Counted from the stretch's first letter, positions 3,505 to 36,400 are shown. The stretch: DNA of 45,852 nucleotides from an uncultured Saprospiraceae bacterium (GCA_964645475.1 CAZYAC010000001.1:1-45852), one strand, 5' to 3'. Translations and numbers: made by a program. Notes: generated from the letters alone by a model not told the origin.

Positions 3505-3571
3505 TAATATGTGAATATTTTTTTTGATAAATTCTTTTTTTTGGCTAGTTCGCCTGCTAGCATAAGTACTA

Positions 3572-5500: not shown

Positions 5501-5516
5501 AGTTGGGTGTTTTTAA

Positions 5517-7240: not shown

Positions 7241-7272
7241 AAATTTATAATTTTTATGCTGGCTACTAGGGT

Positions 7273-10134: not shown

Positions 10135-10147
10135 AAAGTAAAATATC

Positions 10148-10608: not shown

Positions 10609-10613
10609 TTTAA

Positions 10614-11546
10614 CTATTTAGGTCGTTTAGAAATCTCTACTTTTTCTATTCCTGGATACGTTGGAGATTTTACCACTAAAATTCCATCCCAACTAAAACT
10701 CTCATCTACATTTGCATCCGCTATCAAATCAAAATTATACTCGTTTAGCAGCAATTTTTTGCAGTCATTATGCAGTTCATTAGAGTGCGTAGAAATAAAA
10801 ATGTATCCTACTTTATTTTCAGATAATAGTTTCTTAGCCCCATGTAACATAGCCAGTTCAAATCCTTGTATATCTGAGTGCAAAATATCGATGAAATTAA
10901 TTTTATTTCGATGACAAATCATATCAACTGTCAATACATTTTCTTTTTTATTTTCTTGATCACTTATTTTTCCTTGAATAAAAGTCCCTTTCATTTTATT
11001 GATGACAAAATTCCGTTTGCCGTAATATAAATTTTCTCTATTGGGTTCGACCATGTAACAATTAGCGGTAGGAAATAACTGCTGAAACCACATGGAATAA
11101 AAAGACCAATAAGCTCCTAATTCTAACATCGTTTTTTCTTTGTTATTTATACGCTTGAGTACTTCTTGAAAAATTTTTTCTTCTTGTGGTTCATGTACGC
11201 CTTTATTATCAATGAGCATTTGCAGCAATGGAAAACTATAATAGCTCATCGGGTCTATTTTTATACCATTATGCATAATTAAGTTGCCATTGATAATTTG
11301 TCCTGCCTTATCAACCCTATCAATATCTTTGTTATCAGGAGCATTTAATACATTTTCTACTCGAGATTGCCAATAGCTTCTTTTTTCTTCATTCAGTTCA
11401 TCCAGCAGATTATCATTTGTACTTAACAGTCGATTGAGTCGTTTTCTTTTTTTTACAGCAAGTTTATTAAAATAATGGCTGAACAAAAATTCAGGAGAAG
11501 AACTACTGTACAGGTATTTTTTAAATTTATTTTTTATACTTAACAT
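10614..11546 (-). CDS. FkbM-like methyltransferase with N-terminal extension
   Basis: MLELGAYWSFYS (SAM-binding glycine-rich loop), MVEPN, and ILHSDIQGFELAML (D-x-x-G-x-E FkbM block). Confidence 0.6.
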   Translation of the reverse strand: MLSIKNKFKKYLYSSSSPEFLFSHYFNKLAVKKRKRLNRLLSTNDNLLDELNEEKRSYWQSRVENVLNAPDNKDIDRVDKAGQIINGNLIMHNGIKIDPMSYYSFPLLQMLIDNKGVHEPQEEKIFQEVLKRINNKEKTMLELGAYWSFYSMWFQQLFPTANCYMVEPNRENLYYGKRNFVINKMKGTFIQGKISDQENKKENVLTVDMICHRNKINFIDILHSDIQGFELAMLHGAKKLLSENKVGYIFISTHSNELHNDCKKLLLNEYNFDLIADANVDESFSWDGILVVKSPTYPGIEKVEISKRPK

Positions 11547-11570: not shown

Positions 11571-11981
11571 TTAATTCTTGTAAATAAAAATACCATTTCC
11601 CCACAGTTCAATACCTTTTGATGAAGAGTTCAAAAAGGAATTCGTTGCAGCAAAATTATTGACATTAAACGCAACATCACCATCTCGATTACCCAGCGCG
11701 ATATTGAATGCCTTTATATTTTTAAAATCAGATGTTTTTGATTCTAACAAGCTGTAAGAATCTTCAAAAGGTTCAAAACTATAAATTTCACATTTACCAT
11801 CTAAAGAATGATGATATTCCAAAGCAGTATCTCCATCATATGCACCAACATCAAAAATAATGTTCCGTCGATTTAGATTTAGCAAATTCTTCTGAGTCTC
11901 AAAAACAAGGTTTCTTTTAGTTCGATACTTCGAGATTTGATATCCACTTTTATTAAGAATTTTATTAATTATTTTTTTCAT
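11571..11981 (-). CDS. Truncated FkbM-family methyltransferase (N-terminal half only, about 136 aa)
   Basis: IIFDVGAYDGDTALEY...IYSFEPFEDSYSLL...NIALGNRDGDVAF is the FkbM N-terminal half. The ORF stops before the K-I-D-x-E-G block. The likely start is MKKIINK at 11981, in an ATGA overlap with the wzy stop. Confidence 0.55.
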   Translation of the reverse strand: MKKIINKILNKSGYQISKYRTKRNLVFETQKNLLNLNRRNIIFDVGAYDGDTALEYHHSLDGKCEIYSFEPFEDSYSLLESKTSDFKNIKAFNIALGNRDGDVAFNVNNFAATNSFLNSSSKGIELWGNGIFIYKN

Positions 11982-13234
11982 AAATAATGTTTTGTCGTAA
12001 ACATCAGTAAAAACCAATATAATTGATGCTGAAAATTTTCTGCAGCTAAGCCAAAAATAATAATGCATACAAAAAAAGTGAAGTTGAATTGAGCTAAAAG
12101 TATTTCATCATCATCTTCGGTAGGATAAGTAAGCCTCTGAAATATCCTTAATACTGTAAAAAAGAGAAAAGCAATATACAATACTAAACTAGGCAATCCA
12201 TAATCTGCCAGTATGGCTAAATAGTCATTGTGTGGAGATAAATAATATCCACGATTTACTATTTCCAGAATCAATTTATTAGGCTCATCACTAAAATAGT
12301 GGACAAAATTTGCCTTAAACTGACCAATCCCCATCCCCATATAACCTTTATCTTCAAGTGCTCTGAATAGGCCACTCCATATCGTAAATCGAACATCGTT
12401 TTCTCCTTCATTTAATTTTTTATCAATCCGTTCTAATAAAAGCACTCTTACTCCAATTGAACTTTGATTTATTTGCCTTGATAAAAGCAGTAAAACAACA
12501 ACAAGGCTTAGAATGAAAATGGAAAATTTTCGTTTTGTACTTGCAAAAAATAAAACAAATACATTGGCGACTAAGAACATTACAAATCCTGTACGGCTTC
12601 CCGTAATTCCGAATGTATAGATCATAAATAAGATTACGATTAAATATAATATCCGGTAAAAGAACTTGATTTTAAAATTAGTTTTCAACAGCAAAAAAGT
12701 GGTTCCTGCTACTAAGCCAAAAGCTACATAATTAGGATTGTCTGTAAATCCTGCTTGCCGACCATACTGAAAATTAAGTAGAAATTTGATAAATGTATAA
12801 GATGCATTTACGATTAGACCAGCAACAAAGAAATAAAATATTTTTAGTCCCTGCTTTTTGGATATAGGAATAGATTTAAAAACAAAGAAAGTAGCTAAAT
12901 GTAGTCCTGCCTGAAATAAGTCATTGAGAAATAGCCCCATATTAAATAGGCCTCCTATTATTCGAATTAGGGAGATAATTATCCCATAGGTAAATATTCC
13001 GTACAGCAACCAGTCTGTGTTATTCCTTGGATCTAAATGCAAACCTTTGGTTAATACTCGTATCCCAAAAACACCAATAATCAGGATAGATAAAATCCTA
13101 AATGGTTTGAAAATAGTATCTATGCCAAAAAGTACTTCTAAAACTAACTCAAAAGGCATAGAAAATGCATAGGCACAAAACAAGGTAAACAATACCTTGT
13201 CTAAATCAATTGATATGACCTTAGCGTTTAGCAT
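11978..13234 (-). CDS. wzy: O-antigen polymerase/ligase-like (Wzy_C) multi-pass membrane protein
   Basis: About 10 hydrophobic segments. GITGSRTGFVMFLVA resembles the Wzy_C core, and there is a large loop before the last TM segments. Confidence 0.65.
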   Translation of the reverse strand: MLNAKVISIDLDKVLFTLFCAYAFSMPFELVLEVLFGIDTIFKPFRILSILIIGVFGIRVLTKGLHLDPRNNTDWLLYGIFTYGIIISLIRIIGGLFNMGLFLNDLFQAGLHLATFFVFKSIPISKKQGLKIFYFFVAGLIVNASYTFIKFLLNFQYGRQAGFTDNPNYVAFGLVAGTTFLLLKTNFKIKFFYRILYLIVILFMIYTFGITGSRTGFVMFLVANVFVLFFASTKRKFSIFILSLVVVLLLLSRQINQSSIGVRVLLLERIDKKLNEGENDVRFTIWSGLFRALEDKGYMGMGIGQFKANFVHYFSDEPNKLILEIVNRGYYLSPHNDYLAILADYGLPSLVLYIAFLFFTVLRIFQRLTYPTEDDDEILLAQFNFTFFVCIIIFGLAAENFQHQLYWFLLMFTTKHYL

Positions 13235-14675
13235 ATACCACTTCTATTTTTTCTACTATTTCTTGCATGGCCACTATAACTCTATCAGTAGATTTACCAT
13301 CCTTACTAAAACATTCATTTTCTAAGGCATTCGTTCGTTCTGCTATTCTAAAATTCGGATTTTCTAAATATCGTAAAATACTTTCCTCTAATTTTTCATA
13401 AGAATGTACTACCTCGGCACCACCCATTTCTACAAATTTCTTTTGGTGTGGGTAGTCCACCAATCGACGAGCAGACTTCCAATAGTATAAATTTTTGTCT
13501 CCATCAAAAGAAGTCAATATCACCGGCTTGTCCATCATCAAAGCATCTATGGATACCGTCGACCCCGAGTTGAGGCAAATTCTACAACCTGCCAACAAGT
13601 TAGATAGATGATCCATATCTCTTTTATGCATACTCCACCTGACTTTACTTTTCACTAATTGAGGATAATCTACTGCCACCCGTTTATCCATTAAATCATC
13701 TAATCTTTTAATCCATTTTTTATCCGCTAGGCTTCCTTGTACATTCTGAGGATGGGGTCGAATAATTAACTGTAATTCTCTCCCAAATTTATTTTCATTA
13801 ATTGCTTTTGCTAACCACTCAACGATATCAATTTCGTGTGGAGCAAAACGAGGAGAACTCATGGCGACAAATAGATAAGGAAGCGCAGGGTTTAAGCCGA
13901 GTTTAGTGACTAAATTTTTATAATTGGGCGATTGTTTTATCTTAATATGATGATCAAAATGAGGTACGCCACAAATATGTATTCGGTCATCATCCGTCCC
14001 ATAATACTCCTTTAATTCATTATACATCACCTTTCCCCATACGATAAATCGATCAGGAATAACTGGAAAAATTCCCTTGCTGGTTATATTGTCCCAACTT
14101 AATAAATGTATCAAAGTAGAGATTCCTGCTTGTTTAGCAGCATATAAAAATTTGGCTTCTAAAAAATTAATAGGATAGGTAGAAACGACCAAACGGGGAT
14201 TGATTTCTTGGAGTAATTCGGTCGCTCTTTTTGACACTAAATACTTTTTTTCTTTGGCTTTAAATCGTCTGCGTATACTCGGAAAATGAGGAATTAATCG
14301 GTGAATTGGGTAATAAATAAAAGGTCGTATTCGCTTCCAAGGATGTTTTGAATCTGTGTATAAAATACTGTACAAATGCTTTTCCCAAAACACGGGATTA
14401 CTTTTGATATCTTCAAGATAATATATTCGCTTTACACCGTAATCATCATCCCATATTGTTTGAGAAATTTTGGCATCATAAACCTGAATATTACTATGTT
14501 GACTGAGGTTTTGAAAATTAGCATCAGTGGCATCAGGCGTAATGATGGCGATCTTTTTGCCACGATCAGCAAGCTGTAAAATCAGTCCTGTTTGCAACAA
14601 CATTCGAGCTGCAAAACCATGCGATATTACATAGCAGATATCTATACGCTTTGGGTTAGCATTCATTATTGGCAT
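13221..14675 (-). CDS. Uncharacterised GT-B-like transferase; candidate nonulosonic-acid (sialyl) or glycerophospho-type transferase
   Basis: It overlaps neuA by 20 nt. It contains IIRPHPQN (an HP motif as in bacterial sialyl/Kdo/glycerophosphotransferases) and a later LNSGSTVSIDALMMDKPVI. No firm family recognised by eye. Confidence 0.35.
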   Translation of the reverse strand: MPIMNANPKRIDICYVISHGFAARMLLQTGLILQLADRGKKIAIITPDATDANFQNLSQHSNIQVYDAKISQTIWDDDYGVKRIYYLEDIKSNPVFWEKHLYSILYTDSKHPWKRIRPFIYYPIHRLIPHFPSIRRRFKAKEKKYLVSKRATELLQEINPRLVVSTYPINFLEAKFLYAAKQAGISTLIHLLSWDNITSKGIFPVIPDRFIVWGKVMYNELKEYYGTDDDRIHICGVPHFDHHIKIKQSPNYKNLVTKLGLNPALPYLFVAMSSPRFAPHEIDIVEWLAKAINENKFGRELQLIIRPHPQNVQGSLADKKWIKRLDDLMDKRVAVDYPQLVKSKVRWSMHKRDMDHLSNLLAGCRICLNSGSTVSIDALMMDKPVILTSFDGDKNLYYWKSARRLVDYPHQKKFVEMGGAEVVHSYEKLEESILRYLENPNFRIAERTNALENECFSKDGKSTDRVIVAMQEIVEKIEVVYAKR

Positions 14676-15354
14676 AATTACTTGCTGCGGTCCAATCGTC
14701 CATAGTATCTATATTGATGTCAGGTGAACGTTTCATAAGGTGATGAATAATTTTGTTTCCATACAAAGATTTTTGCGTTTGAACTACGTTTGATTTTGTA
14801 ATATAAATTGAACCATCTCTATGATAAGCGGATGGTAAATCTTGTCTTCTAGTAATAATCTGTTCAGCGCTAACTGCTAGTTTTAAAAATCCAGTTTGGG
14901 GGTCTTGCTCGTATATCCAATACGGATTGTAGATATGCGGAACTTCTCGTACCGAAATTAACGAGTCTGCTTTTGCGTTTATAAATTTTTGAATCGCCTC
15001 ATTGATATCTTCTGGATTTCGAAATGGGACCGTTGGTTGTAATAAGCATACTGCATCATAAAATTGATTGTCTTTTTCAAAGAAAGAAAGTGCATGCATC
15101 ACCGTATCTATCGTCGGAGAATGATCAGCCGCTAAATGAGCAGGTCGTATAAATGGAACAGATGCGCCAAGAGATTTGCTTAGCGCTGCAATGGCATCAT
15201 CATCCGTTGTGACGACTACCTGATCTAATAAAGAACAGGCCAACGCAGACTCAATGGAATAAGCGATTAAAGCTTTTCCATGGAGGAGTTTTATGTTTTT
15301 TCGAGGTATCCCTTTTGATCCACCTCTAGCAGGTATGAGTCCTAAAATGCGCAT
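14656..15354 (-). CDS. neuA: CMP-N-acylneuraminate cytidylyltransferase
   Basis: GLIPARGGSKGIPRKNIKLLHGKALIAYSI is the canonical CMP-NeuAc/Kdo synthetase N-terminus. Confidence 0.85.
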   Translation of the reverse strand: MRILGLIPARGGSKGIPRKNIKLLHGKALIAYSIESALACSLLDQVVVTTDDDAIAALSKSLGASVPFIRPAHLAADHSPTIDTVMHALSFFEKDNQFYDAVCLLQPTVPFRNPEDINEAIQKFINAKADSLISVREVPHIYNPYWIYEQDPQTGFLKLAVSAEQIITRRQDLPSAYHRDGSIYITKSNVVQTQKSLYGNKIIHHLMKRSPDINIDTMDDWTAASNYANNEC

Positions 15355-15359
15355 CTAGT

Positions 15360-16130
15360 TTATTTCGTACTATGAAAAAAATCACTTCCCAATAAATTGT
15401 ATTTCCCTAATCGTTCCTCTCTCAGTTCTAGTGTGGTCACATCTCCTATCCTATCCCAATTTATTTCATATTCTCTTTTTAGATTATTTTTTAAAAAGCG
15501 AACATTATTGGTTCTTCCATCGACTAAAATAAAAGTGCCGGGCAATAAAATGGGTTCCATCAATAATAGGTCTCCTGACATGACAGTTCGTTCAGCACAT
15601 TGAAAACTCATTCCATTAATGGAACCTTCCACATCTTTGGGGTCGGGGCCATCGAGATAAATAAAATCGGGAACAATGTCTGGTATGTTTTTATAAAAAT
15701 GGCATAACTGACCATTATGTGTTCCTATTTCAACCTTACTATATTGAATCTTGACAAAATCTTTTAACGCTTCCGGTAATCTTTCTTTAGAAACAGCGAT
15801 CCATTTTTCAGAAGTATCTACAGAAAAACATTGAAATTGAAACCGATTGCGAATTTTTGGTGGAGGGCTGAGTGTCTCCCAATCCAATTTATTTTTCAAT
15901 AAGGCATCCGCAATAATAACGGTGGAATATCCCACGCCAAATTCTAAGACCGTAAAACTTTTTCTTCTTCTAATCAATTGGTGAAGTCGAACCAAATCAG
16001 TTTGATCAATTGCAATGGCCGTTTCTGTAGTATTAGATGTTTTATCTTGACTGTTTTGCAGATCAAATTGAGGAAAATATTTTCCAAGTTGTTCTTTATT
16101 CCAATAATCTATAATTTCTTTTTTGATCAT
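15360..16130 (-). CDS. Probable class I SAM-dependent methyltransferase embedded in the neu cassette
   Basis: VLEFGVGYSTVIIA (motif I-like) and IYLDGPDP (post-I/II acidic motif). The family call is tentative. Confidence 0.4.
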   Translation of the reverse strand: MIKKEIIDYWNKEQLGKYFPQFDLQNSQDKTSNTTETAIAIDQTDLVRLHQLIRRRKSFTVLEFGVGYSTVIIADALLKNKLDWETLSPPPKIRNRFQFQCFSVDTSEKWIAVSKERLPEALKDFVKIQYSKVEIGTHNGQLCHFYKNIPDIVPDFIYLDGPDPKDVEGSINGMSFQCAERTVMSGDLLLMEPILLPGTFILVDGRTNNVRFLKNNLKREYEINWDRIGDVTTLELREERLGKYNLLGSDFFHSTK

Positions 16131-16153
16131 CGTCTGTTTAGTTTAATCCGCTA

Positions 16154-17311
16154 TTAATAGGTCAAGATTTTAGTATAAGTGAGTGGGATATGCGCTAATA
16201 GGTCGGCAATTTTAAGACCTGCATCTCCTTGCCCATATATTTGATCACTAGGATAATTACCATGTTCTATTTGTTTCAAAATGGCCTCTTTGATTTGTTC
16301 TTTATCATAAATGACATCAGAAACATTCGCACCTCGTTCTCGGCCATTTTGTCGTGATCCAATATTGACTACGGGAACTCCGATATAGGCAGATTCTCGA
16401 ATACCAACACTCGAATTTCCGATGAGACATTGGCTATTTTTTAATACCCTCAAAAAATCATGAGGAGACATATTTTTAAAAAAGTGTATTTTCTGGAGGT
16501 CATTATTTTCTCTGAAAGACCGGATGGCATTTGAGGTACCATCCGAACCAGCATCTACATTTGGCCAGAACCAAAAAGTTGGGATTTCCAATTCATAGAC
16601 TGCTTGCAAAGTTTCTTTGACCTGTTTTCTTGACTGTTCATATTCTGTGGTAACAGGATGCTGCATGACCATAATATATCCTTGGGAAATGTCTGGTTTT
16701 TCACCTACACCACCATATTTTTCATAAGGACTGAAATTGAGTATTCCATTTAGATGAATATCGTGTGCTAGGTCAATAGAAGGGCAACCGGTCATAAAGA
16801 CGCTATCTGCTTGTTCTCCCATTTTTAGCACTCGTTCTTTAGATTTTTCAGAAGCTACAAAATGAATATCTGCTAACTTGGTAATAGCATGTCGAACTTT
16901 TTCATCAATATTTCCTGTTACCTCTCCCCCTTGTACATGCACTAAAGGAATATTTAGATAAGTAGCCGCAATAGCAGTAGACATGGTTTCAAAACGATCA
17001 GCAACGGTAACCACTGCATCGGGTTTTAAATTTTCGAAAACATTGGTTAACTCAATAATTCCTAATCCGGTCGTTTTTGCTTGTGCCGCTAAGTTTCCGC
17101 CTTCTAGTACATTAAAGACTTTAGCAGCTATTTCAAAACCATCTCGCTCTATATATTTTACAGCAGTACCATATCGACCTAATAAAGCAGAAGCAGCTAC
17201 AACTAGTAACAGTTCTAAATCAGGATGTTCTTGAATTGCTTTCAAGGCTGACTTTATCCTACTATAACTAGGACGAGCAGTAACAACTACACAAATTTTT
17301 CTTTTTGACAT
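16154..17311 (-). CDS. neuC: UDP-N-acetylglucosamine 2-epimerase (hydrolysing)
   Basis: KICVVVTARPSYSRIK, VHVQGGEVTG and GNSSVGIRE are NeuC/SiaA-type epimerase motifs. Confidence 0.85.
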   Translation of the reverse strand: MSKRKICVVVTARPSYSRIKSALKAIQEHPDLELLLVVAASALLGRYGTAVKYIERDGFEIAAKVFNVLEGGNLAAQAKTTGLGIIELTNVFENLKPDAVVTVADRFETMSTAIAATYLNIPLVHVQGGEVTGNIDEKVRHAITKLADIHFVASEKSKERVLKMGEQADSVFMTGCPSIDLAHDIHLNGILNFSPYEKYGGVGEKPDISQGYIMVMQHPVTTEYEQSRKQVKETLQAVYELEIPTFWFWPNVDAGSDGTSNAIRSFRENNDLQKIHFFKNMSPHDFLRVLKNSQCLIGNSSVGIRESAYIGVPVVNIGSRQNGRERGANVSDVIYDKEQIKEAILKQIEHGNYPSDQIYGQGDAGLKIADLLAHIPLTYTKILTY

Positions 17312-17320
17312 TTTTGCTTT

Positions 17321-18334
17321 TTAAACTAAATCTTCTGCTTTCAAAAAGTCGTACTTCGACTTCGCTACTTTTAGTTTTTTACCAAGAATATTTTTGAATT
17401 CATTGGCTGAAATTCCTTGTTGAGCAGGTTTTTTTGCTTCCAGGTCATGGAAAGTAATTTCGTGTCCTGCGGGCAGATTTTTATTAACTGCTAACGTTTT
17501 TTCAAATATTTTTTTCAATCCCAAATAAGGACTTAGATCATTTTTATCAATTGGATGCTGTAATGCTTTTTCCAAAAATCGGACAGAACGAACGAGCGCT
17601 GCTACTTCATCAATGGTTAAAGAAGAAGAGGCATCTGGCCCAAACATTCTACGATCAAAAACGGTATGAAATTCTAATATTTCAGCACCTAGAGCAACAG
17701 CGGCAATGCCCGTAGCTACTTGGCTGGTATGCTCTGAAAGACCAATACCGACTCCAGGATACCGTTGTTTCATTTCACCAATTACGTTGAGTCCTATCCG
17801 TTCTGGAGGCGTTGGATAACTGGTCGTACATTGTAGGATACTTAGCTTGTTTCCAAAGGTTTGAATAAGTTGGACAGCTGCATCTAATTCTTCAAACGAA
17901 CACATCCCTGAGGATAAAATAATAGGTTTCCCTGTTTTTGCAATTTTCTCTAAAATCAAAAAATTAGTTACTTCTCCCGAACCAATTTTATATTGGTTGA
18001 TTCCAATAGATTCTAATAAGTCAACTGCAGCTAAAGAGAATGGAGAAGACAAGAATTCTAGGTTCTTTTCTTCACAATGTTTTTTTATTCCAATCCATTG
18101 CTCTTTGGTAAATGACATTCGATCCCAATAAGCATAGCGCGTATCGTCTTCGTAAGAAAAATTGATTCTAAAAGGTTCTTCCAAACTACTTTCTGCCGCT
18201 GCTATATGGGTTTGAAATTTAATAGCATCGACTCCTGTAGCTGCGACTGCGTCTATGTAAGAATGAAGTATCCCTAAGCTACCATCATGCGCTTGACCAA
18301 TTTCAGCAATAATAAATGTATTATTCTTCGACAT
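17321..18334 (-). CDS. neuB: N-acetylneuraminate (nonulosonate) synthase with C-terminal SAF domain
   Basis: FIIAEIGQAHDGS, AIKFQT and ILQCTSYPTP-like (LQCTTSYPTPP). I prefer the start MSKNNTF at 18334 over the track start 18376, which lies inside the wzc C-terminus. Confidence 0.9.
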   Translation of the reverse strand: MSKNNTFIIAEIGQAHDGSLGILHSYIDAVAATGVDAIKFQTHIAAAESSLEEPFRINFSYEDDTRYAYWDRMSFTKEQWIGIKKHCEEKNLEFLSSPFSLAAVDLLESIGINQYKIGSGEVTNFLILEKIAKTGKPIILSSGMCSFEELDAAVQLIQTFGNKLSILQCTTSYPTPPERIGLNVIGEMKQRYPGVGIGLSEHTSQVATGIAAVALGAEILEFHTVFDRRMFGPDASSSLTIDEVAALVRSVRFLEKALQHPIDKNDLSPYLGLKKIFEKTLAVNKNLPAGHEITFHDLEAKKPAQQGISANEFKNILGKKLKVAKSKYDFLKAEDLV

Positions 18335-27385: not shown

Positions 27386-28948
27386 TTATCTTATTTGAAG
27401 TTGTTCTTTTAATGCTGATCGTTTTACTTTACCCGAACCTGTTCTGGGAAAAGATGCCACAAAGGTAATTTTCTCTGGAATAGCATAAACTGGTAATTTA
27501 GTTTTTAAAAATAGTATCAATGCTTCCTCCTTAATATCCATACCAGACCGCAAAATAATCACCGCTTCTAATTTCAAATTTTCCTCTTTTTCCTTTACCG
27601 CTAAAACGACCGCTTCTTCTACTACATCATGTGATACTAGCTTTGCTTCTATCGAGCCTAACTCAATACGATATCCACGGATTTTAACTTGGTAATCTTT
27701 TCGACCTAAAAAATGCAAAACATGATCTGCATCTAAACGAACTAAATCACCAGTCCGATAAAAGATATCATCTATATTTGCACTGTTTTTTCTTCGATAA
27801 AACGACTGTTCAGTTAGTGCTGGTTGCTGCCAATATCCTTTCATCATCGTAGCACTTCGCACACATAACTCTCCCACTCCAGTTTTTAATTCTTCCTCAT
27901 TTTCATCGAGGACAATGCTCGCGGTATTTTTCCAAACCTTACCTAGAGGAATACCCTCTTCACCAACTGGTGGACTAGGGATATTGTAATACGTACATTG
28001 ATTTAATTCTGTTGGACCGTAGATATTACTAAACTTGGCATGGCTCCAAAGTTCCATCAATTGACGTAAATATTTAGGTGGAAATGCCTCTCCTGCATAA
28101 AAAACCCACCGTAAGCTATGCATGTTTTTTTCTTCCAATGATCCATTTTGGAGCATTTGAATTAAGGCTAAGGGGACTGAATACCAAACCGTTATTTTTT
28201 CTTTTTCTATTAGCTGACTCAAACTCGCTGGCAAGACAATATGAGCATCAGAAGCAATGACGGTACAACCTCCTACAAAAGGCGCGGTAAAATATCCAAG
28301 GGTAGAAATATCAAAATAAATGGGTGCATGGTTTCCAAAAACATCATTTTCGTTTAACCCATAAAGATCTGCCGTCAAGCGAGCATACGCTAGACCACTG
28401 GCATGGGTATGCATGATTCCTTTGGGATTTCCAGTAGAACCAGAAGTGTAAATAATGTAGGCAATATCATTTTCCAAAACAGGAAAAGGCAAGGTAAGTA
28501 TTGTTGGTTGTTCTTCTAATTGCTCCCATAAAAAACTAGGAATATTACCAGCTTCTTTCACCCCTATTATGGCATCTAAATCTACCTTCGATTCAATGAT
28601 ATTTTGAATATTCCTTCTTTGTGCATTATTGGTAATTAAAATTTTAATCCCACAATCATTGATAAGAAAACGAGTTCTCTCAATCGGTACTTTGGGATCG
28701 AGCGGAACATAAATGGCTCCCGCTTGCATGATCCCATACATTGCAATTGCGGTCTCTAAACTTCTATTTAAATAAATTCCAATTCGATCTCCTTTTTCTA
28801 TTCCAACTTGATGGAGCAAATTAGCCAACTGGTTCATTTTTACATTTATCTCGCTAAAAGTCAACGACTTAGCACCAAATCGAAATGCTTCTCGATTGGG
28901 AAATTGCTTGGCAGAATTTGAAATAGTATGTGGCAATAAATAAATCAC
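27386..28948 (-). CDS. Free-standing NRPS-type adenylating enzyme (DltA-like amino acid--carrier protein ligase)
   Basis: YIIYTSGSTGNPKG, FDISTLGY (an Asp235 equivalent is present, so an amino-acid substrate is likely), NIYGPTE, YRTGDLV, GRKDYQVKIRGYRIELGSIE and GSGKVKR. Hand-derived specificity residues D-I-L-Y-F-A-I-Q-C-K match no code I recognise. Confidence 0.8.
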   Translation of the reverse strand: MIYLLPHTISNSAKQFPNREAFRFGAKSLTFSEINVKMNQLANLLHQVGIEKGDRIGIYLNRSLETAIAMYGIMQAGAIYVPLDPKVPIERTRFLINDCGIKILITNNAQRRNIQNIIESKVDLDAIIGVKEAGNIPSFLWEQLEEQPTILTLPFPVLENDIAYIIYTSGSTGNPKGIMHTHASGLAYARLTADLYGLNENDVFGNHAPIYFDISTLGYFTAPFVGGCTVIASDAHIVLPASLSQLIEKEKITVWYSVPLALIQMLQNGSLEEKNMHSLRWVFYAGEAFPPKYLRQLMELWSHAKFSNIYGPTELNQCTYYNIPSPPVGEEGIPLGKVWKNTASIVLDENEEELKTGVGELCVRSATMMKGYWQQPALTEQSFYRRKNSANIDDIFYRTGDLVRLDADHVLHFLGRKDYQVKIRGYRIELGSIEAKLVSHDVVEEAVVLAVKEKEENLKLEAVIILRSGMDIKEEALILFLKTKLPVYAIPEKITFVASFPRTGSGKVKRSALKEQLQIR

Positions 28949-30096
28949 AAGCCTAATAATTTTGCAATAATGTTACGTTGTATATCCGAAGTCCCTGCAT
29001 ATAAAATACCTCCTACAGAATCACGAAAATCTCGATCTACCCCTGTATCTGTTAAATAGCTAATGCCACCGAATGTACGCATTGCATCAAGGCTCGATTG
29101 TAAAAACGACTCACTCAAACTCAATTTTAACATAGCTGATTCCAACATAGCGGTTTCACCGTTTTGCTTTAACCATGCTGTTTTATACAATAATAACCTC
29201 GCCGTTTCTAAGCGCAATTTCATCTCCACGATCCGATTAGAAACAGATTGAAATTTACTGATTGATTGATCGTATTGTTTACGTTCTTTGGCAAAATTTA
29301 TCGTGTTTTCTAACTGTCGCTCCATTGCTCCTAATTGACTGGCTAAGATACAACAGCGATCATATTCTAAGGAATGATTAAGGATACTAAATCCTAGGCC
29401 TTCGCTGCCAAGGATATTTTCATGCGGAATTAAACAATCTTTAAATTCCAATGCTCCAATAGGAATAGAACGCATCCCCATTTTAGATTTTCTTTCACTT
29501 CGTTGAAATCCTGGCGTATCTTTGTCCACCAAAAAAGCAGAAACGCCCCATTTTCCTAATTCAGGTTTAGCATTGGCAAACACCAAGACAAAATCACAAA
29601 TTGGAGCCAAGGTGATAAGATGTTTTTTACCATTGAGTAAATAGCCATCTGATTGTTTTATGGCCGTCATTTCCATGCTAAAGATATCTGATCCCGCGTT
29701 GGGTTCCGTCAAAGCATGGCAGCCAATTAACTGTCCTTTAGCCATCGGAACGAGATATTTTTGTTTCTGTGTTTCATTACCAAAATGCAGTATTGGAGTT
29801 TGTACCGTCCACATCTGTGCATTGAGTCCAAAGGCTAGTCCATTATCTTCACAGCCATATCCAAAGCCTTCCATTGCTAGCAAGGCTCTCATAAAATCGA
29901 CTTTTTCAAAATCGCCACCATAGGGTTGGGTGACGGCAAGAGACTGAATACCGAACTGTGCACATTTCTGCCATAACGCTATTGGAAATGTTTCTGTTTT
30001 ATCTCTTTCTAGGACATGGATATTAAGTTCGTTCTTTGCAAAAGAAATAACTTCCTCTTTAAATTCCATATAATCCTCAGGCCAAGAAAAATCCAT
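28945..30096 (-). CDS. Acyl-CoA dehydrogenase-family flavoprotein (probable acyl/aminoacyl-S-carrier-protein dehydrogenase)
   Basis: CHALTEPNAGSD and the ACAD N/M/C domain order. C-terminal YAGTSDIQRNIIAK has a variant of the catalytic-base region (usually YEG; here Y-A-G). 4-nt overlap with the ligase gene. Confidence 0.75.
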   Translation of the reverse strand: MDFSWPEDYMEFKEEVISFAKNELNIHVLERDKTETFPIALWQKCAQFGIQSLAVTQPYGGDFEKVDFMRALLAMEGFGYGCEDNGLAFGLNAQMWTVQTPILHFGNETQKQKYLVPMAKGQLIGCHALTEPNAGSDIFSMEMTAIKQSDGYLLNGKKHLITLAPICDFVLVFANAKPELGKWGVSAFLVDKDTPGFQRSERKSKMGMRSIPIGALEFKDCLIPHENILGSEGLGFSILNHSLEYDRCCILASQLGAMERQLENTINFAKERKQYDQSISKFQSVSNRIVEMKLRLETARLLLYKTAWLKQNGETAMLESAMLKLSLSESFLQSSLDAMRTFGGISYLTDTGVDRDFRDSVGGILYAGTSDIQRNIIAKLLGL

Positions 30097-30174
30097 TCTT
30101 ATTTTTTTACAGTAAAAATATTATTATCATGCAAGATAAGAGCTAATAAGGTTAATTACGATAGAAATTTATGT

Positions 30175-30217
30175 TTTGGATTAAAATAACTCATTCTTTA
30201 CAAAATTTTAATCCAAA
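30175..30217. repeat. Perfect 13-bp inverted repeat TTTGGATTAAAAT-N17-ATTTTAATCCAAA
   Basis: Read directly: 30175-30187 is the exact reverse complement of 30205-30217. Confidence 0.85.
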
Positions 30218-30221
30218 CATA
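30214..30221 (-). promoter_or_regulatory. Candidate Bacteroidetes -7 promoter element TATGTTTG (TAnnTTTG) for the minus-strand train
   Basis: Plus-strand CAAACATA is TATGTTTG on the minus strand and overlaps the right repeat arm. A near-copy, TATGTTTTG, sits on the plus strand at 30170-30178 overlapping the left arm. I found no clear -33 TTTG. Confidence 0.3.
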
Positions 30222-30336
30222 CATGGTTTTTCGTAAACGATTGTATAACTTGGATTAGTTAGTCACCTTTTAACTCCGTTTAAACAAATTTTATGTGGAT
30301 GAACGATTGACAAATAGGCCATAACAACTGTATACG

Positions 30337-32109
30337 ATGTTTAAAATATTTACAGAGAGAGAGAAATTTAAATTTGTTGGTCTTGCCGTAGCTATCCTTA
30401 TCATGGGATTTCTGGAGGTGATAGGAGTAGCGTCTATCTTACCTTTTATGCAATTAATTGCAGAACCTAATGCCATAGAACAATCTTCCGTACTATCTGC
30501 AGGCTATCGTTTTTTCGGTTTTGAAACTCATCGAGAGATGCTTATCTATTTTGGTATTGGTATTATTGTTCTTATTGGTATCACGAATATCTTTGCGATT
30601 TTTACAACTTGGATACAATATAAATATTCTTGGGCTGTAGCTCATAATTTAAGCATTCGCTTACTACAGACTTATATTGGAAAACCGTATTCCTACTATC
30701 TAAAGACCAATACTTCAAAATTACAAACTTATATTGTATCCGAGGTCAACATGTTGACTGGAGGTATTATTATTCCATTTATAGAAGTAATCTCTAGGTC
30801 CTTTGCGGCGATCATTATTTTCACCTTACTATTGACGGTTGATACTAAGATTGCACTCATCATGTTCGGAAGTTTAGGGTTTGCTTATTTTTTAATCTAT
30901 CTTTCCCAAAAGGGTTTTCTTAGAAAGATTGGAACCCACAGAATAGAAATGAATATGCTTCGCTATCAAAGTTTACAAGAACTTTTAGATGGCATAAAAA
31001 CGATTCTAGTTTATAACAAGCAGCATTTTTTCTATAATAGATTTGAATATGCATCTAAAGAATTTTGTGATGTACAACCAAAGTATAATTTATTATTAGC
31101 TGCTCCTAGATATATTTTAGAATTTTTAGCTTTTGGGAGTATCCTTGGCGTTACGATGTATTTATACACCTCTGAGGGAAATATCCAATCAGCTATTCCA
31201 AGGTTAAGCCTTTATGCGGTAGCTGGATATCGACTATTACCAGCTTTACAGAAATCTTTTGCAGCAGCAGCCAAAATCAAACATAATTATCCCGTATACG
31301 AAAGATTGCGTGATGATTTAGAATATAGCTTAAAACATACCCTCAAATCAGCTTCTCCCCCTCTTCCATTGCCCTTTAAAAAGGTTATTGAGATAAACCA
31401 TTTGGGATATTCTTACGAAAATGTGGAAAATACCGTAATAAAAAATCTAAATTTGAGAATTGTTAAAGGTGAAATAGTTGCCTTTATTGGTTCTACTGGC
31501 TCTGGTAAAACTACCTTCGTTGACTTGATTGTTGGTCTGCTACACCCAAAAACTGGTTCTATAGATGTAGATGGAATTCCATTAACACCAAAAAATATTC
31601 AGTCATGGCGGGATAATTTAGCGTATGTTCCTCAAGAAGTCTTTTTATTTGATGATACGGTTCTCAAAAATTTGGTAATTGATAATAATCAAGAGACGCT
31701 TGACTTTGAAAGATTAAAGCAGGTATGTCGAATAGCCAATATTCTCGATTTTATCGAACAAGAATTGCCTAAAGGGTTTGAAACTAAAATTGGAGAGCGA
31801 GGTGTACGTCTGAGTGGTGGACAGAGACAACGTCTAGGTCTAGCGCGAGCTTTGTATACCAATCCTGAACTATTAATACTAGATGAAGCTACTAGCGCAT
31901 TAGACAGTATTACTGAAAAAAACATTATATCTTCTTTAAAACAACTGCCTGCTGATATTACCATTATTATTATTGCTCACAGACTTTCGACCATCAAACA
32001 TGCTGACTGTATTTATGTACTGGATAATGGAAGTATTTTTTCAAAGGGTAACTATAATACTTTGATGGAAACAAATGATACTTTTAGAACTATGGTAAAA
32101 CTTTCCTAA
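30337..32109 (+). CDS. ABC exporter, fused permease/ATPase (MsbA/type I exporter-like)
   Basis: Six N-terminal TM segments, Walker A GSTGSGKTT, signature LSGGQRQR, Walker B LLILDEATS and H-loop IAHRLS. Confidence 0.85.
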   Translation: MFKIFTEREKFKFVGLAVAILIMGFLEVIGVASILPFMQLIAEPNAIEQSSVLSAGYRFFGFETHREMLIYFGIGIIVLIGITNIFAIFTTWIQYKYSWAVAHNLSIRLLQTYIGKPYSYYLKTNTSKLQTYIVSEVNMLTGGIIIPFIEVISRSFAAIIIFTLLLTVDTKIALIMFGSLGFAYFLIYLSQKGFLRKIGTHRIEMNMLRYQSLQELLDGIKTILVYNKQHFFYNRFEYASKEFCDVQPKYNLLLAAPRYILEFLAFGSILGVTMYLYTSEGNIQSAIPRLSLYAVAGYRLLPALQKSFAAAAKIKHNYPVYERLRDDLEYSLKHTLKSASPPLPLPFKKVIEINHLGYSYENVENTVIKNLNLRIVKGEIVAFIGSTGSGKTTFVDLIVGLLHPKTGSIDVDGIPLTPKNIQSWRDNLAYVPQEVFLFDDTVLKNLVIDNNQETLDFERLKQVCRIANILDFIEQELPKGFETKIGERGVRLSGGQRQRLGLARALYTNPELLILDEATSALDSITEKNIISSLKQLPADITIIIIAHRLSTIKHADCIYVLDNGSIFSKGNYNTLMETNDTFRTMVKLS

Positions 32110-32120: not shown

Positions 32121-33353
32121 ATGAAACAAAGAATCACCTCTATTTTTTTTTTAATCCTCGTTCTTAGTTTTTTTCTTCCTAACTTAGTCCAAGCACACTC
32201 CCCTGATCAAAGCTATTTATACTTAAGAATATATAAAGCATCCATCGGTGGTCGTTTTGAGATGACGGCTAAGGACATGAATAAAGCACTTGACTTAAAT
32301 CTAAATGATAAATTAGATATGGCTAGTGTGAAACCTCACTTACCAAAAATTTATGCCTACTTAAAAAGTAGATCTTCCTTTCAAGCTGGTGCTGAAAAAT
32401 ATACCGTTGAATTCCAAGAATCAACGATCTTAAGCTTAGAGGAAATGGAAGATTTTGTGCGCTTTCATTTTGATTTAAAAGGCGTAACCAAAGTACCAGA
32501 AGGAATGGATATTGGCTATGAAGTTCTATTTGATAAAGATCCCATTCACAGAGGTGTCCTCATCGTCGAATATAATTGGAAGGCCGGAATTGTCAATAAT
32601 GAGGCATTAATGTCTAATATCTATAGCCCTGGAAACACCTTACAAAATCTTTCGCTTGCTGATGTATCGTTGTGGAAAGGATTCGTTGCATTAGTAAAGT
32701 TAGGGGTATGGCATATCTGGATTGGATTGGATCATATCTTATTTATTATTGCGCTTATCTTACCTTCTGTCGTGCGACGAAGAAAAGAAGGAGATGCACT
32801 CACTGCGCTTGACAGTAATAGCGCTTGGATTCCAGTCGACAACTTCAAATCTGCATTTTTATACATCATTAAAATAATCACTTTTTTTACCATCGCTCAC
32901 TCCATCACTTTAGCATTGGCATCCCTCAACATTGTCAATCTCCCTTCTTGGCTGGTAGAGTCTATCATTGCTTTTTCGATTGCACTTGCTGCGTTACACA
33001 ATATTACGCCCATCTTTAAAAGCAAAGAATGGATTATTGCTTTTGGATTTGGTTTATTTCATGGATTTGGATTTGCTAGTGTTCTTGGCGAAAAAGGTTT
33101 AGGTGGCGATTATATGATTTTATCCTTACTGGGTTTTAATGTCGGGGTTGAATTGGGTCAAGTACTCATCATCTGCATGGTATTTCCTTTTCTTTATCTA
33201 CTCAGAAAACAAAAAATATATCCTCCGATCATCAAATACGGCTCTATCGTTTTAATTTTAATTTCTTTCTATTGGATGTACGAAAGAATATTTGATGTTG
33301 AGTTGGCTTGGGGTGGTTATTTTTGGAATATCTATGATGCGATTTTCAAGTAA
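32121..33353 (+). CDS. HupE/UreJ_2-family membrane protein with N-terminal periplasmic domain
   Basis: Signal peptide ending VQA|HSPD. C-terminal TM bundle with GVWHIWIGLDHILFIIAL, FTIAHSITLA and LFHGFGFA motifs typical of HupE/UreJ-type metal permease-like proteins. Confidence 0.65.
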   Translation: MKQRITSIFFLILVLSFFLPNLVQAHSPDQSYLYLRIYKASIGGRFEMTAKDMNKALDLNLNDKLDMASVKPHLPKIYAYLKSRSSFQAGAEKYTVEFQESTILSLEEMEDFVRFHFDLKGVTKVPEGMDIGYEVLFDKDPIHRGVLIVEYNWKAGIVNNEALMSNIYSPGNTLQNLSLADVSLWKGFVALVKLGVWHIWIGLDHILFIIALILPSVVRRRKEGDALTALDSNSAWIPVDNFKSAFLYIIKIITFFTIAHSITLALASLNIVNLPSWLVESIIAFSIALAALHNITPIFKSKEWIIAFGFGLFHGFGFASVLGEKGLGGDYMILSLLGFNVGVELGQVLIICMVFPFLYLLRKQKIYPPIIKYGSIVLILISFYWMYERIFDVELAWGGYFWNIYDAIFK

Positions 33354-33409: not shown

Positions 33410-36400
33410 ATGTCTTCAGATCCTAAAAATAAAAAATCCTCCATTTTAGCACAATGGCGAAATCGTAAAAAAGACGTTTCGCCTGCTTTTACTATTCCCC
33501 TAAAACCGAAAGAGGAAATTGCTAGACCTTCAAGTGGTCAACATCGACTTTGGTTATTACAAAAACTATATCCTGAAAATCCCTTCTATCAATATGCTCA
33601 TTTATATACCATAAAAGGAACACTAGATATTGATTTACTAAAGGATAGTTTCCAATTTTTAATAGATAAACATGCTATTTTAAGAACTAACTTCTTAGAG
33701 ACCGAAGAAGGGGTGATTTTAAAAATTAATCCTACTGAAAAATTAAATTTTGATTTTACTGACCTATCTGATTTGAAGGTTGAAACAGCGCAACAACAAG
33801 CTCAAAAAACCATCCAAACACATGCGCTTAAAACATTCAACCTTGAAAAAGATAGCTTAGTCAGGCTCCATTTATTAAAAATAACTAAAGACCAATTTCT
33901 TTTAGCCTTATCTATTCATCATATCATCGGAGACCGTTCTTCTCTACTATTAATGAATCAGGAATGGCTCAGATATTACAAAACGATTAAGGAAAATAAA
34001 GACATTCCCTCTTTTGATAAAAACAGTATACAATACGTAGACTATGCCCACTGGAAAAACCAACAAGCAACCAAGGAAAAAGATATCCAATATTGGCAGC
34101 AAAAACTAAGTGGACCGTTAGCGACACTTGCTTTGCCTACTGATTTCCAAAGACCAAAGGAATTTAAATTTAAAGGATCTACTATACGTCAGTTATTGTC
34201 TCCCACTGTTTCACAACAACTAAAACAATTAGCTAAAGACCAACAAACTACCATGTACGTGGTCCTTTTGAGTGCGTTCAAAACCTTATTATTTAGATAT
34301 ACGCATCAAGAAGACATCATTGTTGGTTGTCCTTTTAGTACAAGAGATCAAAAATCCTTAGAACAACTCATTGGATTTTTTAATGAAACTTTAGTTTTAA
34401 GAACTAGACTCTCAGATCAACTCAAATTTAGTGATTCTATTGCTGCGGTCAAAGAAACATCCATACAGGCATTGACCCATAAAAATGTCGGATTTGATGA
34501 ATTAGTTAAACGTATAAAACCCGGACGAAAGGGTACGACCAATCCATTATTTCAAATCATGTTTGTCTATAATGAGGTAGCTAATCGTCAAGCCCTTGAA
34601 GGGTTATCCATCACAGAAGAAACGATAGACTTAGGGGTTTCAAAATTTGATCTTACGCTTTTTGCAACAGATCAAGAAGATACCATTGAGCTTGCTTTAG
34701 AATTCTCCACAGAGCTATTTGAGTTAGAAACGGCAGCGCGAATATTAGACCACTTAAGCGATTTATTGACATCAATTGCAGGGGATCCTGCCCAGCAAAT
34801 TTCGCAAATCTCTTTTCTTGGAGCACAAGAAAAATCTAAGCTTTTAACGGAATGGAATAATACCAGTGTCAAGATTCCTTCCTATGATTCCATTCATCAA
34901 TTATTTGAAGAAAAGGCGACCCATCAACCTAACAAAATTGCGGTAGCATGTAATGGAGAAAAAATAAGTTATGGGGAACTCAACCAAAAAGCCAATCGGT
35001 TAGCTCAAAAACTGCTAACTTCTGGCGTCAAACCAAATGAATTTGTAGGTCTTTTTACAGGCCGCAGCATGGCGATGGTCATCGGCATTTTAGGAATATT
35101 AAAATCAGGTGCTGCTTATCTTCCACTCGATCCAAAATATCCAACCAAACGAATTGAATTCATGGTGGACGATGCAAAAATCAACACCATTTTGTATCAA
35201 AAAAAATGGGAAAAAGAAGTACCGCTTACGGTGGCATTTAGTCACAGCATTGAAGACGCTATCATTGAAAAAAAACAAGTAGATATTACTTTACCTACGA
35301 TTAGTAAAGATCAACTGGCCTATATTATTTATACTTCAGGCAGTTCTGGTATTCCTAAAGGCGTAGCGATCTCTCATCAAAATTTAATTCACTCAACTGC
35401 TGCTCGTTTTTATTTTTTCGAACAAAACCCTACTGCTTTTTTACTACTCTCTTCTTTTTCTTTTGATAGTTCTGTAGCTGGTATTTTCTGGACGCTTTGT
35501 ACTGGTGGAACTTTGGTTTTGCCACCAGCAAGAATCGAACAAGATATGCGAGCGTTGGCCCAAATAATTTTTGATCATAAAGTCAGCCATACTTTGTTAT
35601 TACCTAGTTTATACAAACTATTATTGGATAACAACAGTACTAGCGCACAGTTGGCTTCTTTACAAACCGTAATGGTAGCTGGAGAAGCTTGCTCGTCAGC
35701 TACCGTATTAGCTCATTTTAAGAAAACTAATAACGTTGAGTTGGTTAATGAATATGGCCCTACAGAAGGAACGGTCTGGTCTACAGCCTATCATATAACG
35801 CCCAAAGATGCGTTTGCAAATATCCCTATCGGGCGACCAATCCCTAACACACAACATTATATTCTAGATAAAAATGAAGCACTGCTGCCTATTGGTATTC
35901 CTGGAGAACTCCACATCGCAGGAGCAGGTATTGCTAATGGATATTGGCAGCGACCTGAATTAACGGCAAAGCGTTTTATTAGTAAATCTTTTGTCTCTTC
36001 AACGAGTGATAAACTTTATAAAACTGGAGATTTAGTCCGCTATCGAAAAGACGGAATCATTGAGTTTTTAGGGCGAATAGATCAGCAGGTAAAGATTAGA
36101 GGTCACCGAATAGAATTAGACGAAATCAAAAATCATTTACTTCACTTAGCATCGGTGGAGGATGCTTTAGCTATTATCCAAAATAGGGATACCGTCCCTC
36201 GTTTGGTTGCCTATATTATTCCAACCAATAAGGAAGAGGCTGTTTCTTTTAAAGAGGCATTGACAGAGCGTTTACCAAACTACATGATCCCTTCTGCTTT
36301 TATTAATTTGACGGAATTTCCAACATTACCCAATGGAAAGATTGACTACTCCGCTTTGCCAATTCCAACAAAAAATGACTTTATACCGGATCACGCATTT

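Follow-up and report, generated by a model that had tools for sequence, protein, structure and literature searches.

Why should the genes of a nonribosomal peptide synthetase (NRPS) assembly line stand at the head of a capsule locus? The question is raised by a 45,852-nucleotide stretch of DNA from an uncultured Saprospiraceae bacterium (GCA_964645475.1, CAZYAC010000001.1:1-45852; this whole stretch is hereafter called the window). On its minus strand an acyl-CoA-dehydrogenase-like gene (ACAD), a free-standing adenylation (A) enzyme, a carrier protein and a first NRPS (NRPS1) run into a GT1-family glycosyltransferase, the capsule export genes wza and wzc and the nonulosonic-acid gene neuB. Genome-mining and annotation tools handle NRPS clusters and capsule loci as separate kinds of locus. 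A preliminary description of the window had argued from the 11-nt gap in front of GT1-Wza that both sides are co-transcribed and build a shared product. Our comparison shows that the arrangement is not a chance adjacency: dozens of marine Bacteroidota share it, on genomes and contigs independent of one another. The reading that we favour, at a probability of roughly 0.45, is that it encodes two products under joint control and not one covalent molecule. At the least, the locus represents a new pairing, inherited jointly and probably also expressed jointly, of a small histidine-containing glycopeptide with a sulfated sialo-glycan.

Gene order and junctions of the array

Each open reading frame (ORF) lies where the preliminary description had placed it, and the domain assignments (Pfam, NCBIfam) agree with the order ACAD, A, carrier protein, NRPS1, GT1-Wza, Wzc, NeuB. 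From upstream to downstream the genes are:

28945-30096, minus strand: ACAD (Pfam/NCBIfam and ORF table)
27386-28948, minus strand: free-standing A enzyme (Pfam/NCBIfam and ORF table)
27117-27359, minus strand: free-standing carrier protein of 80 aa (PP-binding domain)
22920-27110, minus strand: NRPS1, with condensation, adenylation and thiolation domains (C-A-T) and without a thioesterase (TE) (Pfam/NCBIfam)
20758-22908, minus strand: 716-aa ORF with GT1 and Poly_export/SLBB domains (Pfam/NCBIfam), made up of the next two genes
21532-22908, minus strand: GT1-family (MGT/CrtX-like) glycosyltransferase, last gene of the NRPS set, in frame with wza and without a stop codon of its own
20758-21531, minus strand: Wza-type outer-membrane polysaccharide export lipoprotein, starting at an ATG of its own (21531) and carrying the lipobox Cys at Wza residue 20
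18321-20669, minus strand: Wzc (Pfam/NCBIfam)
17321-18376, minus strand: NeuB (Pfam/NCBIfam)

From the 3' end of neuB down to 416 the same strand carries NeuC, NeuA, a Wzy_C protein, glycosyltransferases, AsnB and a sulfotransferase. The recomputed junctions reproduce the earlier values, a 4-nt overlap between the ACAD and A genes and then gaps of 26, 6, 11 and 88 nt. The reported 14-nt overlap of wzc and neuB is recovered with a NeuB start that matches homologues of 338-339 aa, and becomes 56 nt if the first ATG is taken. The absence of opposite-strand genes between 30096 and 416 was borne out by an ORF scan: plus-strand ORFs of at least 80 aa in 416-30096 number three, all short and each wholly inside minus-strand genes. 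An assembly artefact is ruled out, the same gene order being present on an independent Logan contig.

The boundary between the two sides does not fall where it had been drawn. The 11-nt gap at 22908-22920, previously taken as the NRPS/Wza junction, separates NRPS1 from GT1, and GT1 belongs to the NRPS set, in which it is present in loci without capsule genes. The true boundary is the GT1/wza junction at window positions 21529-21534 (minus strand), where the frames coincide and a stop codon is absent, so that the single "GT1-Wza" gene described earlier resolves into two genes without an intervening stop. From residue 460 onward the ORF reads MGKYYSIIWLFMISLCLGSC, a lipoprotein signal; a 261-aa stand-alone Wza, 79% identical, begins exactly there, and the Wza part aligns from its residue 1 with 12 stand-alone Wza proteins in which the lipobox Cys is invariant. 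Among the non-self homologues of the GT1 half, the best 119 measure 354-478 aa, and none has a Poly_export domain. Likewise, the 150 best matches among 1.84 billion cluster representatives cover residues 1 to about 450 or residues 460-715, never both. A family of GT1-Wza fusion proteins was accordingly rejected, every homologue examined being stand-alone. The sole other fused copy is the same 716-aa ORF, with one substitution, on an independent JGI contig, and because it recurs there the fused ORF is no assembly slip. The nearest relatives show no such read-through; their GT1 stop and wza start overlap as ATGA. In the fused protein the signal peptide could serve as a signal-anchor cleaved at the lipobox, or Wza could initiate internally.

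Conservation of the arrangement

A survey seeded with GT1, with one locus kept per species, returned 80 loci, many of them on contigs of metagenome-assembled genomes (MAGs). ORF calling in the relatives was mechanical, and labels were assigned by BLASTP against the window proteins (E < 1e-5). The loci were classified as follows:

NRPS and Wza/Wzc together: 27 loci
capsule genes present, upstream flank too short: 6 loci
NRPS set, Wza/Wzc absent within at least 8 kb downstream: 28 loci
NRPS set, downstream flank too short: 11 loci
GT1 alone: 3 loci
undetermined: 5 loci

The composite is thus found in at least 27 species-level genomes, and in 14 metagenome contigs besides. Linked loci occur in Saprospiraceae, in Flavilitoribacter (Lewinellaceae), in Cyclobacteriaceae and in Roseivirga and Maribacter MAGs, and wherever both flanks are readable the order is always ACAD-A-carrier protein-NRPS1-GT1-(FkbM-GT11)-Wza-Wzc-NeuB-NeuC. 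Isolate labels of the MAGs agree with sample codes in PMC10233909, which suggests that many of the carriers live on marine algae. The 28 unlinked loci carry ACAD, A, carrier protein, NRPS1, a HupE protein, an ABC exporter, a second NRPS (NRPS2) and GT1; their hosts include Algibacter, Wocania, Winogradskyella and Hyunsoonleella (Flavobacteriaceae among them), other Saprospiraceae, Proteobacteria and Acidobacteria.

A second survey was seeded with Wza and counted loci with at least 1.5 kb of upstream sequence. Where Wza identity was at least 47%, GT1/NRPS genes were upstream in 13 loci and absent in two, both exceptions being short contigs, one with GT11 and the other with different sugar genes. 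Where identity rounded to 47% or lower (n = 34), cpsB lay upstream within 1.5 kb in 15 loci (abutting in most), NRPS genes in one and other genes in 18. The comparison of related genomes, put forward earlier as a check on whether the two blocks always co-occur, bears out their co-occurrence for a large clade (27 loci from the genome scan, 14 from the metagenome scan). Each is also found without the other, and the nearest wza-wzc-neuB loci free of NRPS genes (L109, L134) lie on short contigs. Since the NRPS set exists without capsule genes and cpsB-wza-wzc without NRPS genes, each block can stand alone.

Proposed insertion site and inheritance

In canonical relatives cpsB is directly upstream of wza-wzc, whereas in the window an NRPS set of about 17 kb lies between them. 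The displaced gene is:

38858-39595, minus strand: CpsB/CapC PHP-type tyrosine phosphatase, the partner of Wzc, at the upstream edge of the capsule locus

It lies beyond NRPS2, on the strand of wza, in the window and in three of the four relatives examined there (L167, L168, L170), whose far side reads NRPS2, then a cupin gene and an extracytoplasmic function (ECF) sigma factor (or a phosphopantetheinyl transferase), cpsB and unrelated genes. With cpsB beyond the entire NRPS set, the set occupies the usual cpsB|wza junction.

In a neighbour-joining tree of GT1 the capsule-linked loci form one clade, loci with FkbM and GT11 genes are its sister and plain NRPS loci are basal; inside the capsule-linked clade, one locus (L030) has secondarily lost the link. 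Four loci of Lewinellaceae type and Portibacter (L038, L045, L053, L057) have NRPS1-GT1-FkbM-GT11 together with sulfotransferase, acyltransferase, epimerase or Wzy_C-like genes, and are without Wza/Wzc. The sulfotransferase of L057 was considered as an ortholog of a 240-aa gene found between the FkbM genes downstream and was rejected on comparison, so we claim only GT11 and FkbM as shared. The FkbM-GT11 pair itself changes place: on basal branches it stands on one or the other side of GT1, towards wza or towards NRPS1, and in the crown group, to which the window belongs, it follows wzy. Distances between loci computed from ACAD, A and GT1 are correlated with those computed from Wzc, NeuB and NeuC (Mantel r 0.92, a value reached by 0 of 2000 permutations). 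Together, tree and distances show a single origin of the composite and co-inheritance of its NRPS and capsule sides. We propose that the NRPS set of about 17 kb would have been inserted once between cpsB and wza, in an ancestor of a Saprospiraceae-centred clade, and that both halves would since have been inherited as a single unit, at least once on a plasmid-like contig. On the latter, a 54-kb contig of a Maribacter sp. MAG (L168), genes for KilA-N, a Rep3 replication initiator and ParA (16157-21186) lie directly beyond cpsB, which suggests a plasmid; the whole composite may be plasmid-borne there.

Evidence on co-transcription

From ACAD to wza all genes are on the same strand, with short or overlapping junctions, and in many relatives a homologue of the TonB receptor of the NRPS set (53-60%) abuts ACAD on the same strand at gaps of 4-44 nt and extends the co-linear array upstream. 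The 4-nt ATGA overlap of GT1 and wza occurs in nine distinct loci of the survey seeded with GT1, and the metagenome contigs L093, L095-L097, L099 and L102 have it too. Elsewhere the GT1-wza gap is 11-12 nt or 60-370 nt, and in basal loci it is 1-6 kb filled with glycan genes. As a separate observation, in three capsule-linked loci (L032, L035, L047) GT1 (GT11 in L035) is followed by wzc and wza is undetectable; in L032 and L047 about 230 nt separate GT1 from wzc.

Upstream of ACAD lies the region that separates the array from the genes on the opposite strand:

30097-30336: divergent intergenic region of 240 nt, with a -7 box TAnnTTTG at 30221 on the minus strand

By consensus match, this Bacteroidetes -7 box is the only intergenic one upstream of the minus-strand array, and none was found within 1.3 kb upstream of wza. 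The full pattern TTTG-N17-21-TAnnTTTG occurred twice where 2.4 occurrences were expected, neither of them relevant, and scans of 16-31 kb for sigma-70 promoters and intrinsic terminators remained at chance level. The earlier remark that no terminator-like structure interrupts the array agrees with the 10 terminator-like hairpins found in 16-31 kb against 10.0 expected, none of which is intergenic on the minus strand. Comparison across loci by eye revealed no shared operator upstream of ACAD, and a whole-window scan produced no Rfam match to a riboswitch or other RNA family. As no terminator signal is seen and the ACAD-GT1 half runs straight into wza, the NRPS and capsule genes are likely co-transcribed, and the two sides most likely made together.

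The linkage might instead be neutral, the NRPS set having landed between cpsB and wza and persisted there by vertical inheritance and transfer of islands, each block with its own promoters and without any functional tie to the other. Such hitch-hiking would fit the occurrence of both blocks alone elsewhere, the loss of the link within the linked clade, the long GT1-wza spacers of several relatives and a neighbour-joining tree that carries no bootstrap values. We nevertheless hold it to be improbable, as the arrangement has been retained in at least 41 loci over Saprospiraceae, Lewinellaceae, Cyclobacteriaceae and Roseivirga and Maribacter MAGs, at protein identities down to 40-50%, and the junction shows overlapping start and stop codons. 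Free recombination is usual for capsule loci, but here both sides have a common history.

A complete peptide assembly line

The NRPS side is a complete assembly line, and its predicted chain consists of a dehydroprolyl or pyrrolyl starter, an Asn-derived residue (or Ser) and His. By its matches, ACAD is a prolyl-carrier-protein dehydrogenase of the acyl-CoA-dehydrogenase fold, far from ordinary acyl-CoA dehydrogenases: its best PDB match is the prolyl-ACP dehydrogenase 4irn (391 bits, versus 275 bits for 5zw0), and its best NCBIfam models are PigA (394 bits) and RedW, both under cut-off. The free-standing A enzyme has the code DILYFAIQCK, with family variants such as DILYLALVC, which we compare with proline codes. 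The proline-carrier-protein ligase 6o6e matches it over the full length at 242 bits, other NRPS A domains scoring higher. An ornithine cyclodeaminase gene, which supplies proline, adjoins the cassette in L005 and L169.

NRPS1 has the C-domain motif HHLITDA, the T-domain motif GGDSL and an A-domain code, DLTKIGEVGK, for Asn. After A8 its A domain holds a PP-loop insert of AMDH type (aa 905-1230, nt 23421-24398, minus strand; about 325-330 residues), which is followed by the A9/A10 motifs. The insert contains the PP-loop SGGKDS at 24177-24194 and a CxxC...CxxC pattern, and resembles N-acetyl-sugar amidotransferases (TIGR03573, 126.6 bits; PDB 8wex). All 24 long, AMDH-type NRPS1 homologues, from Bacteroidota, Proteobacteria and Acidobacteria, have the Asn code, whereas most short versions have a Ser code. 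The AMDH of CysH and its homologue AlbIV convert carrier-bound Asn to beta-cyanoalanine or isoasparagine, and many orphan AMDH homologues are known, all within Asn-specific A domains (PMC7966384); the code DLTKIGEVGK is recorded for the beta-cyanoalanine module of albicidin (PMC12283262). On these grounds the NRPS1 insert predicts beta-cyanoalanine or isoasparagine.

The remaining genes of the NRPS set are on the other strand:

33410-37435, plus strand: NRPS2 (C-A-T-TE; C HHIIGDR, T GGDSI, TE GTCFS)
32121-33353, plus strand: HupE/UreJ_2 membrane protein, consistently with the ABC exporter and NRPS2 across the family
30337-32109, plus strand: ABC exporter with fused transmembrane and nucleotide-binding domains (best NCBIfam models PglK, HepA and MsbA, all under cut-off)
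40352-42595, plus strand: TonB-dependent receptor (CarbopepD_reg_2 and Plug domains), part of the NRPS set

The A-domain code of NRPS2, DSALMAEVWK, is one residue off the His code DSALIAEVWK. Its TE has Cys1167 (nt 36908-36910) at the nucleophile position instead of Ser, as do 22 of the 22 aligned TE-domain sequences; Cys at this position also occurs in ObiF1, which forms a beta-lactone, and in the monobactam enzyme SulM (PMC6668435, PMC11298585). NRPS2 is found with NRPS1 in the window, in all four relatives examined on the far side (L167-L170) and in most NRPS-only loci.

The domain scan upheld the preliminary statement that NRPS1 is without a TE. Of the two downstream acceptors named there, NRPS2 or a non-peptide nucleophile, the latter is not needed, for NRPS2 accompanies NRPS1 wherever the contig reaches and completes a line of starter and two modules. 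An amino sugar as acceptor of a C domain, also considered earlier, is unsupported because both C domains sit in ordinary C-A-T elongation modules with HHxxxD and neither is free-standing.

We propose the following hypothetical sequence of steps, in which (i) the free-standing A enzyme would load proline onto the 80-aa carrier protein; (ii) the AnaB/PigA-like flavoenzyme would oxidise the prolyl group to a dehydroprolyl or pyrrolyl starter; (iii) NRPS1 would add Asn, which its embedded AMDH-type PP-loop domain would convert to beta-cyanoalanine or isoasparagine; (iv) NRPS2 would add His and its Cys-thioesterase release the chain; (v) GT1 would glycosylate the peptide and the ABC pump export it; and (vi) the TonB receptor and the HupE-like protein would mediate re-uptake. 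With a pyrrolyl starter and beta-cyanoalanine, the predicted aglycone pyrrole-2-carbonyl-beta-cyanoAla-His would have the formula C15H16N6O4 and a calculated monoisotopic mass of 344.123 Da, to which each hexose would add 162.053. The accessory genes GT1, ABC, HupE/UreJ_2 and TonB receptor suggest a secreted and re-imported metal-binding glycopeptide, and since the latter two point to re-uptake, we infer a metallophore-like role with nitrogen-donor ligands.

A free-standing A enzyme and carrier protein next to surface-polymer genes also bring to mind the D-alanylation of teichoic acids by Dlt, where thiotemplate chemistry likewise stands beside surface-glycopolymer genes. By analogy with DltA/DltC, the pair might hand an aminoacyl or pyrrolyl group directly to the polysaccharide, and one relative (L002) does have an MBOAT gene and a 331-aa gene inside its glycan block. 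We regard this as very remote: no MBOAT or DltD-like gene was found in the window, the pair always comes with the dehydrogenase and with a downstream C-A-T module that takes the starter for the C-A-T / C-A-T-TE line, and the cassette is also present in loci without any polymer genes.

The glycan genes

Wzc combines Wzz and GNVR domains with the Walker A motif SGEGKT and a C-terminal Tyr cluster, YYGYGGYYYG, and by these features is a tyrosine autokinase/co-polymerase of the PCP-2a type. Downstream of it the minus strand carries:

13221-18376, minus strand: nonulosonic-acid block of NeuB, NeuC, a 256-aa methyltransferase-like protein, a CMP-sugar cytidylyltransferase and a 484-aa protein
11978-13234, minus strand: Wzy_C-domain membrane protein, polymerase or ligase (Wzy_C 64.5 bits; the family includes ligases)
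10614-11546, minus strand: FkbM methyltransferase (profile match)
10109-10614, minus strand: disrupted 240-aa gene, intact between the FkbM genes in relatives
9361-10134, minus strand: FkbM, second copy (profile match)
8453-9328, minus strand: GT11 fucosyltransferase-family gene (profile match)
416-8337, minus strand: distal glycan genes, comprising an epimerase/dehydratase, a GT4, a hexapeptide acyltransferase, AsnB, a GT4, an epimerase and a sulfotransferase

NeuC passes the NeuC_NnaA equivalog cut-off, and NeuB and the cytidylyltransferase are of the nonulosonate type. The 484-aa "Glyphos_transf"-like protein matches the BFO_1060 glycosyltransferase family and "surface carbohydrate biosynthesis" families and is a putative nonulosonate transferase. 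A sequence search of the PDB yielded no usable match for it or for the Wzy_C protein. On the glycan side, the product would be a polysaccharide with nonulosonic acid and fucose among its sugars and with sulfate and methyl groups.

The distal order is shared with a Maribacter MAG, with Flavilitoribacter nigricans and with another contig (L171-L173) and runs Wzy_C, FkbM, 240-aa gene, FkbM, GT11, epimerase, GT4, hexapeptide transferase, AsnB, GT4, epimerase, sulfotransferases. The glycan block of about 25 kb carries several sulfotransferases and is near-identical in content across families, a degree of conservation unusual for a capsule locus. No match to Polysacc_synt, Bac_transf or Glycos_transf_4, the profiles for a Wzx flippase or an initiating phosphoglycosyl transferase, was found in 416-20669 or in the full loci L171-L173; such genes may lie elsewhere in the genome.

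One product or two

For two separate products speak the occurrence of each block alone elsewhere, the release, export and uptake genes that the assembly line has of its own, and a first module that varies while the glycan genes stay constant. Several points weigh against this reading or against steps within it. Separate products explain poorly why the junction is retained down to about 42% GT1 identity, give no explanation for the movement of the GT11/FkbM cassette (between NRPS1 and GT1, between GT1 and wza, or after wzy), and sit uneasily with a glycan block of about 25 kb that has neither Wzx nor an initiating transferase. As to joint control, the spacers of 60-370 nt leave room for an internal promoter, consensus scans have little power in AT-rich DNA, and the Mantel correlation could simply mirror the species tree. 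The metallophore role, for its part, has only the neighbouring transport genes and the predicted residues as its basis.

The main alternative is a single glycoconjugate, in which the GT1-glycosylated peptide would be the primer, or aglycone, or else the final acceptor, of the downstream glycan. In the cytoplasm, glycosyltransferases and sulfotransferases dependent on 3'-phosphoadenosine 5'-phosphosulfate would assemble the chain upon the peptide. The ABC exporter, PglK/MsbA-like, would then stand in for Wzx and carry it over the inner membrane, the Wzy_C protein would polymerise or ligate it, and Wzc/Wza would export it. This route would account for the missing Wzx and initiating transferase in a composite whose sole transporter is an ABC exporter with PglK, HepA and MsbA as best families. 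It would also suit GT1, since enzymes of this family act on small acceptors and the one here always stands at the NRPS/glycan boundary. Further, the GT1 tree can be read as a graded series, from NRPS plus GT1, through the addition of FkbM and GT11 with a sulfo- or acyltransferase or epimerase (L038, L045, L053, L057), to the full glycan locus. The varied interleaving of the GT11/FkbM cassette and the conservation of glycan gene content across families point the same way.

However, the ABC exporter, HupE and TonB receptor are also present in NRPS loci without glycan genes beyond GT1, loci that agree in their glycan genes differ in the first module (Ser or Asn/AMDH), and the TonB receptor points to a small diffusible ligand. 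Moreover, Wzx and an initiating transferase may be encoded at a distance, and no enzyme joining peptide to polymer was identified. Because conserved glycan genes come without Wzx or an initiating transferase, a shared product keeps some plausibility; on balance we think it the less likely reading and lean towards separate products under joint control. More doubtful still is the specific proposal that the NRPS glycopeptide is the primer or covalent end-group of a sulfated nonulosonic-acid polymer made without undecaprenyl-phosphate initiation or Wzx and passed from the PglK-like ABC exporter to Wzc/Wza. If true, a peptide primer would constitute an undescribed route joining thiotemplate synthesis to capsule assembly, independent of Wzx and of lipid-phosphate initiation. 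A cultured carrier, Flavilitoribacter nigricans DSM 23189, is available as a test system; its composite occupies about 355.8-409.5 kb of PDUD01000001.1 (L024, L169, L172).

Relation to known systems

All components are of known kinds; what is undescribed in the literature searched is an NRPS set conserved in a place between cpsB and wza and leading on into the capsule genes. We found no description in the searchable literature of an operon of NRPS and Wza/Wzc genes, or of AMDH in Bacteroidota.

The capsule side corresponds to Wzy-dependent (group 1-like) systems in its Wza lipoprotein of the OPX type, its Wzc with Walker A motif and Tyr cluster, CpsB, Wzy_C and its sugar-nucleotide and glycosyltransferase genes. 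It differs from them in that a 17-kb NRPS set splits cpsB from wza, that no Wzx or initiating transferase was found in the locus, and that its content is conserved across families where theirs varies with serotype.

On the peptide side, the starter cassette consists of three separate genes with the same roles as in known proline-derived cassettes, both pyrrolyl (PltF/PltL/PltE, PigI/PigG/PigA, RedM/RedO/RedW) and dehydroprolyl (AnaC/AnaD/AnaB). Here the scores are under the NCBIfam equivalog cut-offs, the product may be oxidised by two or four electrons, and the downstream partner is a two-module NRPS, not a polyketide synthase or halogenase pathway. NRPS1 is likened by architecture and code to CysH (cystobactamid) and AlbIV (albicidin), with which it shares an insert of about 330 aa of the adenine-nucleotide alpha-hydrolase superfamily, SGGKD and an Asn-coded A domain. 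In contrast to their para-aminobenzoate oligomers, the line here is a short Pro-X-His one in Bacteroidota. The family offers a natural-product resource, with a large set of orphan AMDH-type Asn modules and a family-wide Cys-thioesterase.

Natural-product superclusters, such as that for cephamycin and clavulanic acid, consist of two adjacent, co-regulated gene sets. The composite is likewise made of two self-sufficient pathways inherited as a unit, with the difference that one partner is a locus for the export and assembly of a surface polysaccharide and that the two meet in a start/stop overlap within one array.

Minor features of the locus

In the disrupted 240-aa gene, the N- and C-terminal parts match in different frames and about 60 residues are absent; this break explains an 82-aa ORF and an apparent 225-nt gap at that place. 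A 165-aa ORF at 11571-12068 (minus strand) matches positions 1-72 of the FkbM profile only, shares 91 nt with the 3' end of the Wzy_C gene and may be what is left of a partial FkbM copy. A heparinase II/III-like protein is encoded within the glycan block of relatives. The MBOAT and 331-aa genes of L002 (16665-19105) follow NeuC, and L005 has an Acyl_transf_3-SGNH gene in the corresponding position, so that O-acylation would seem to be a variable module of a glycan block conserved in other respects.

Two further genes lie between NRPS2 and cpsB:

38051-38710, minus strand: ECF sigma factor (profile match)
37428-38051, minus strand: cupin-domain protein, probably a ChrR-like anti-sigma factor

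L167 and L170 have this pair in the same position, and it is a candidate for the regulation of the NRPS-capsule composite.

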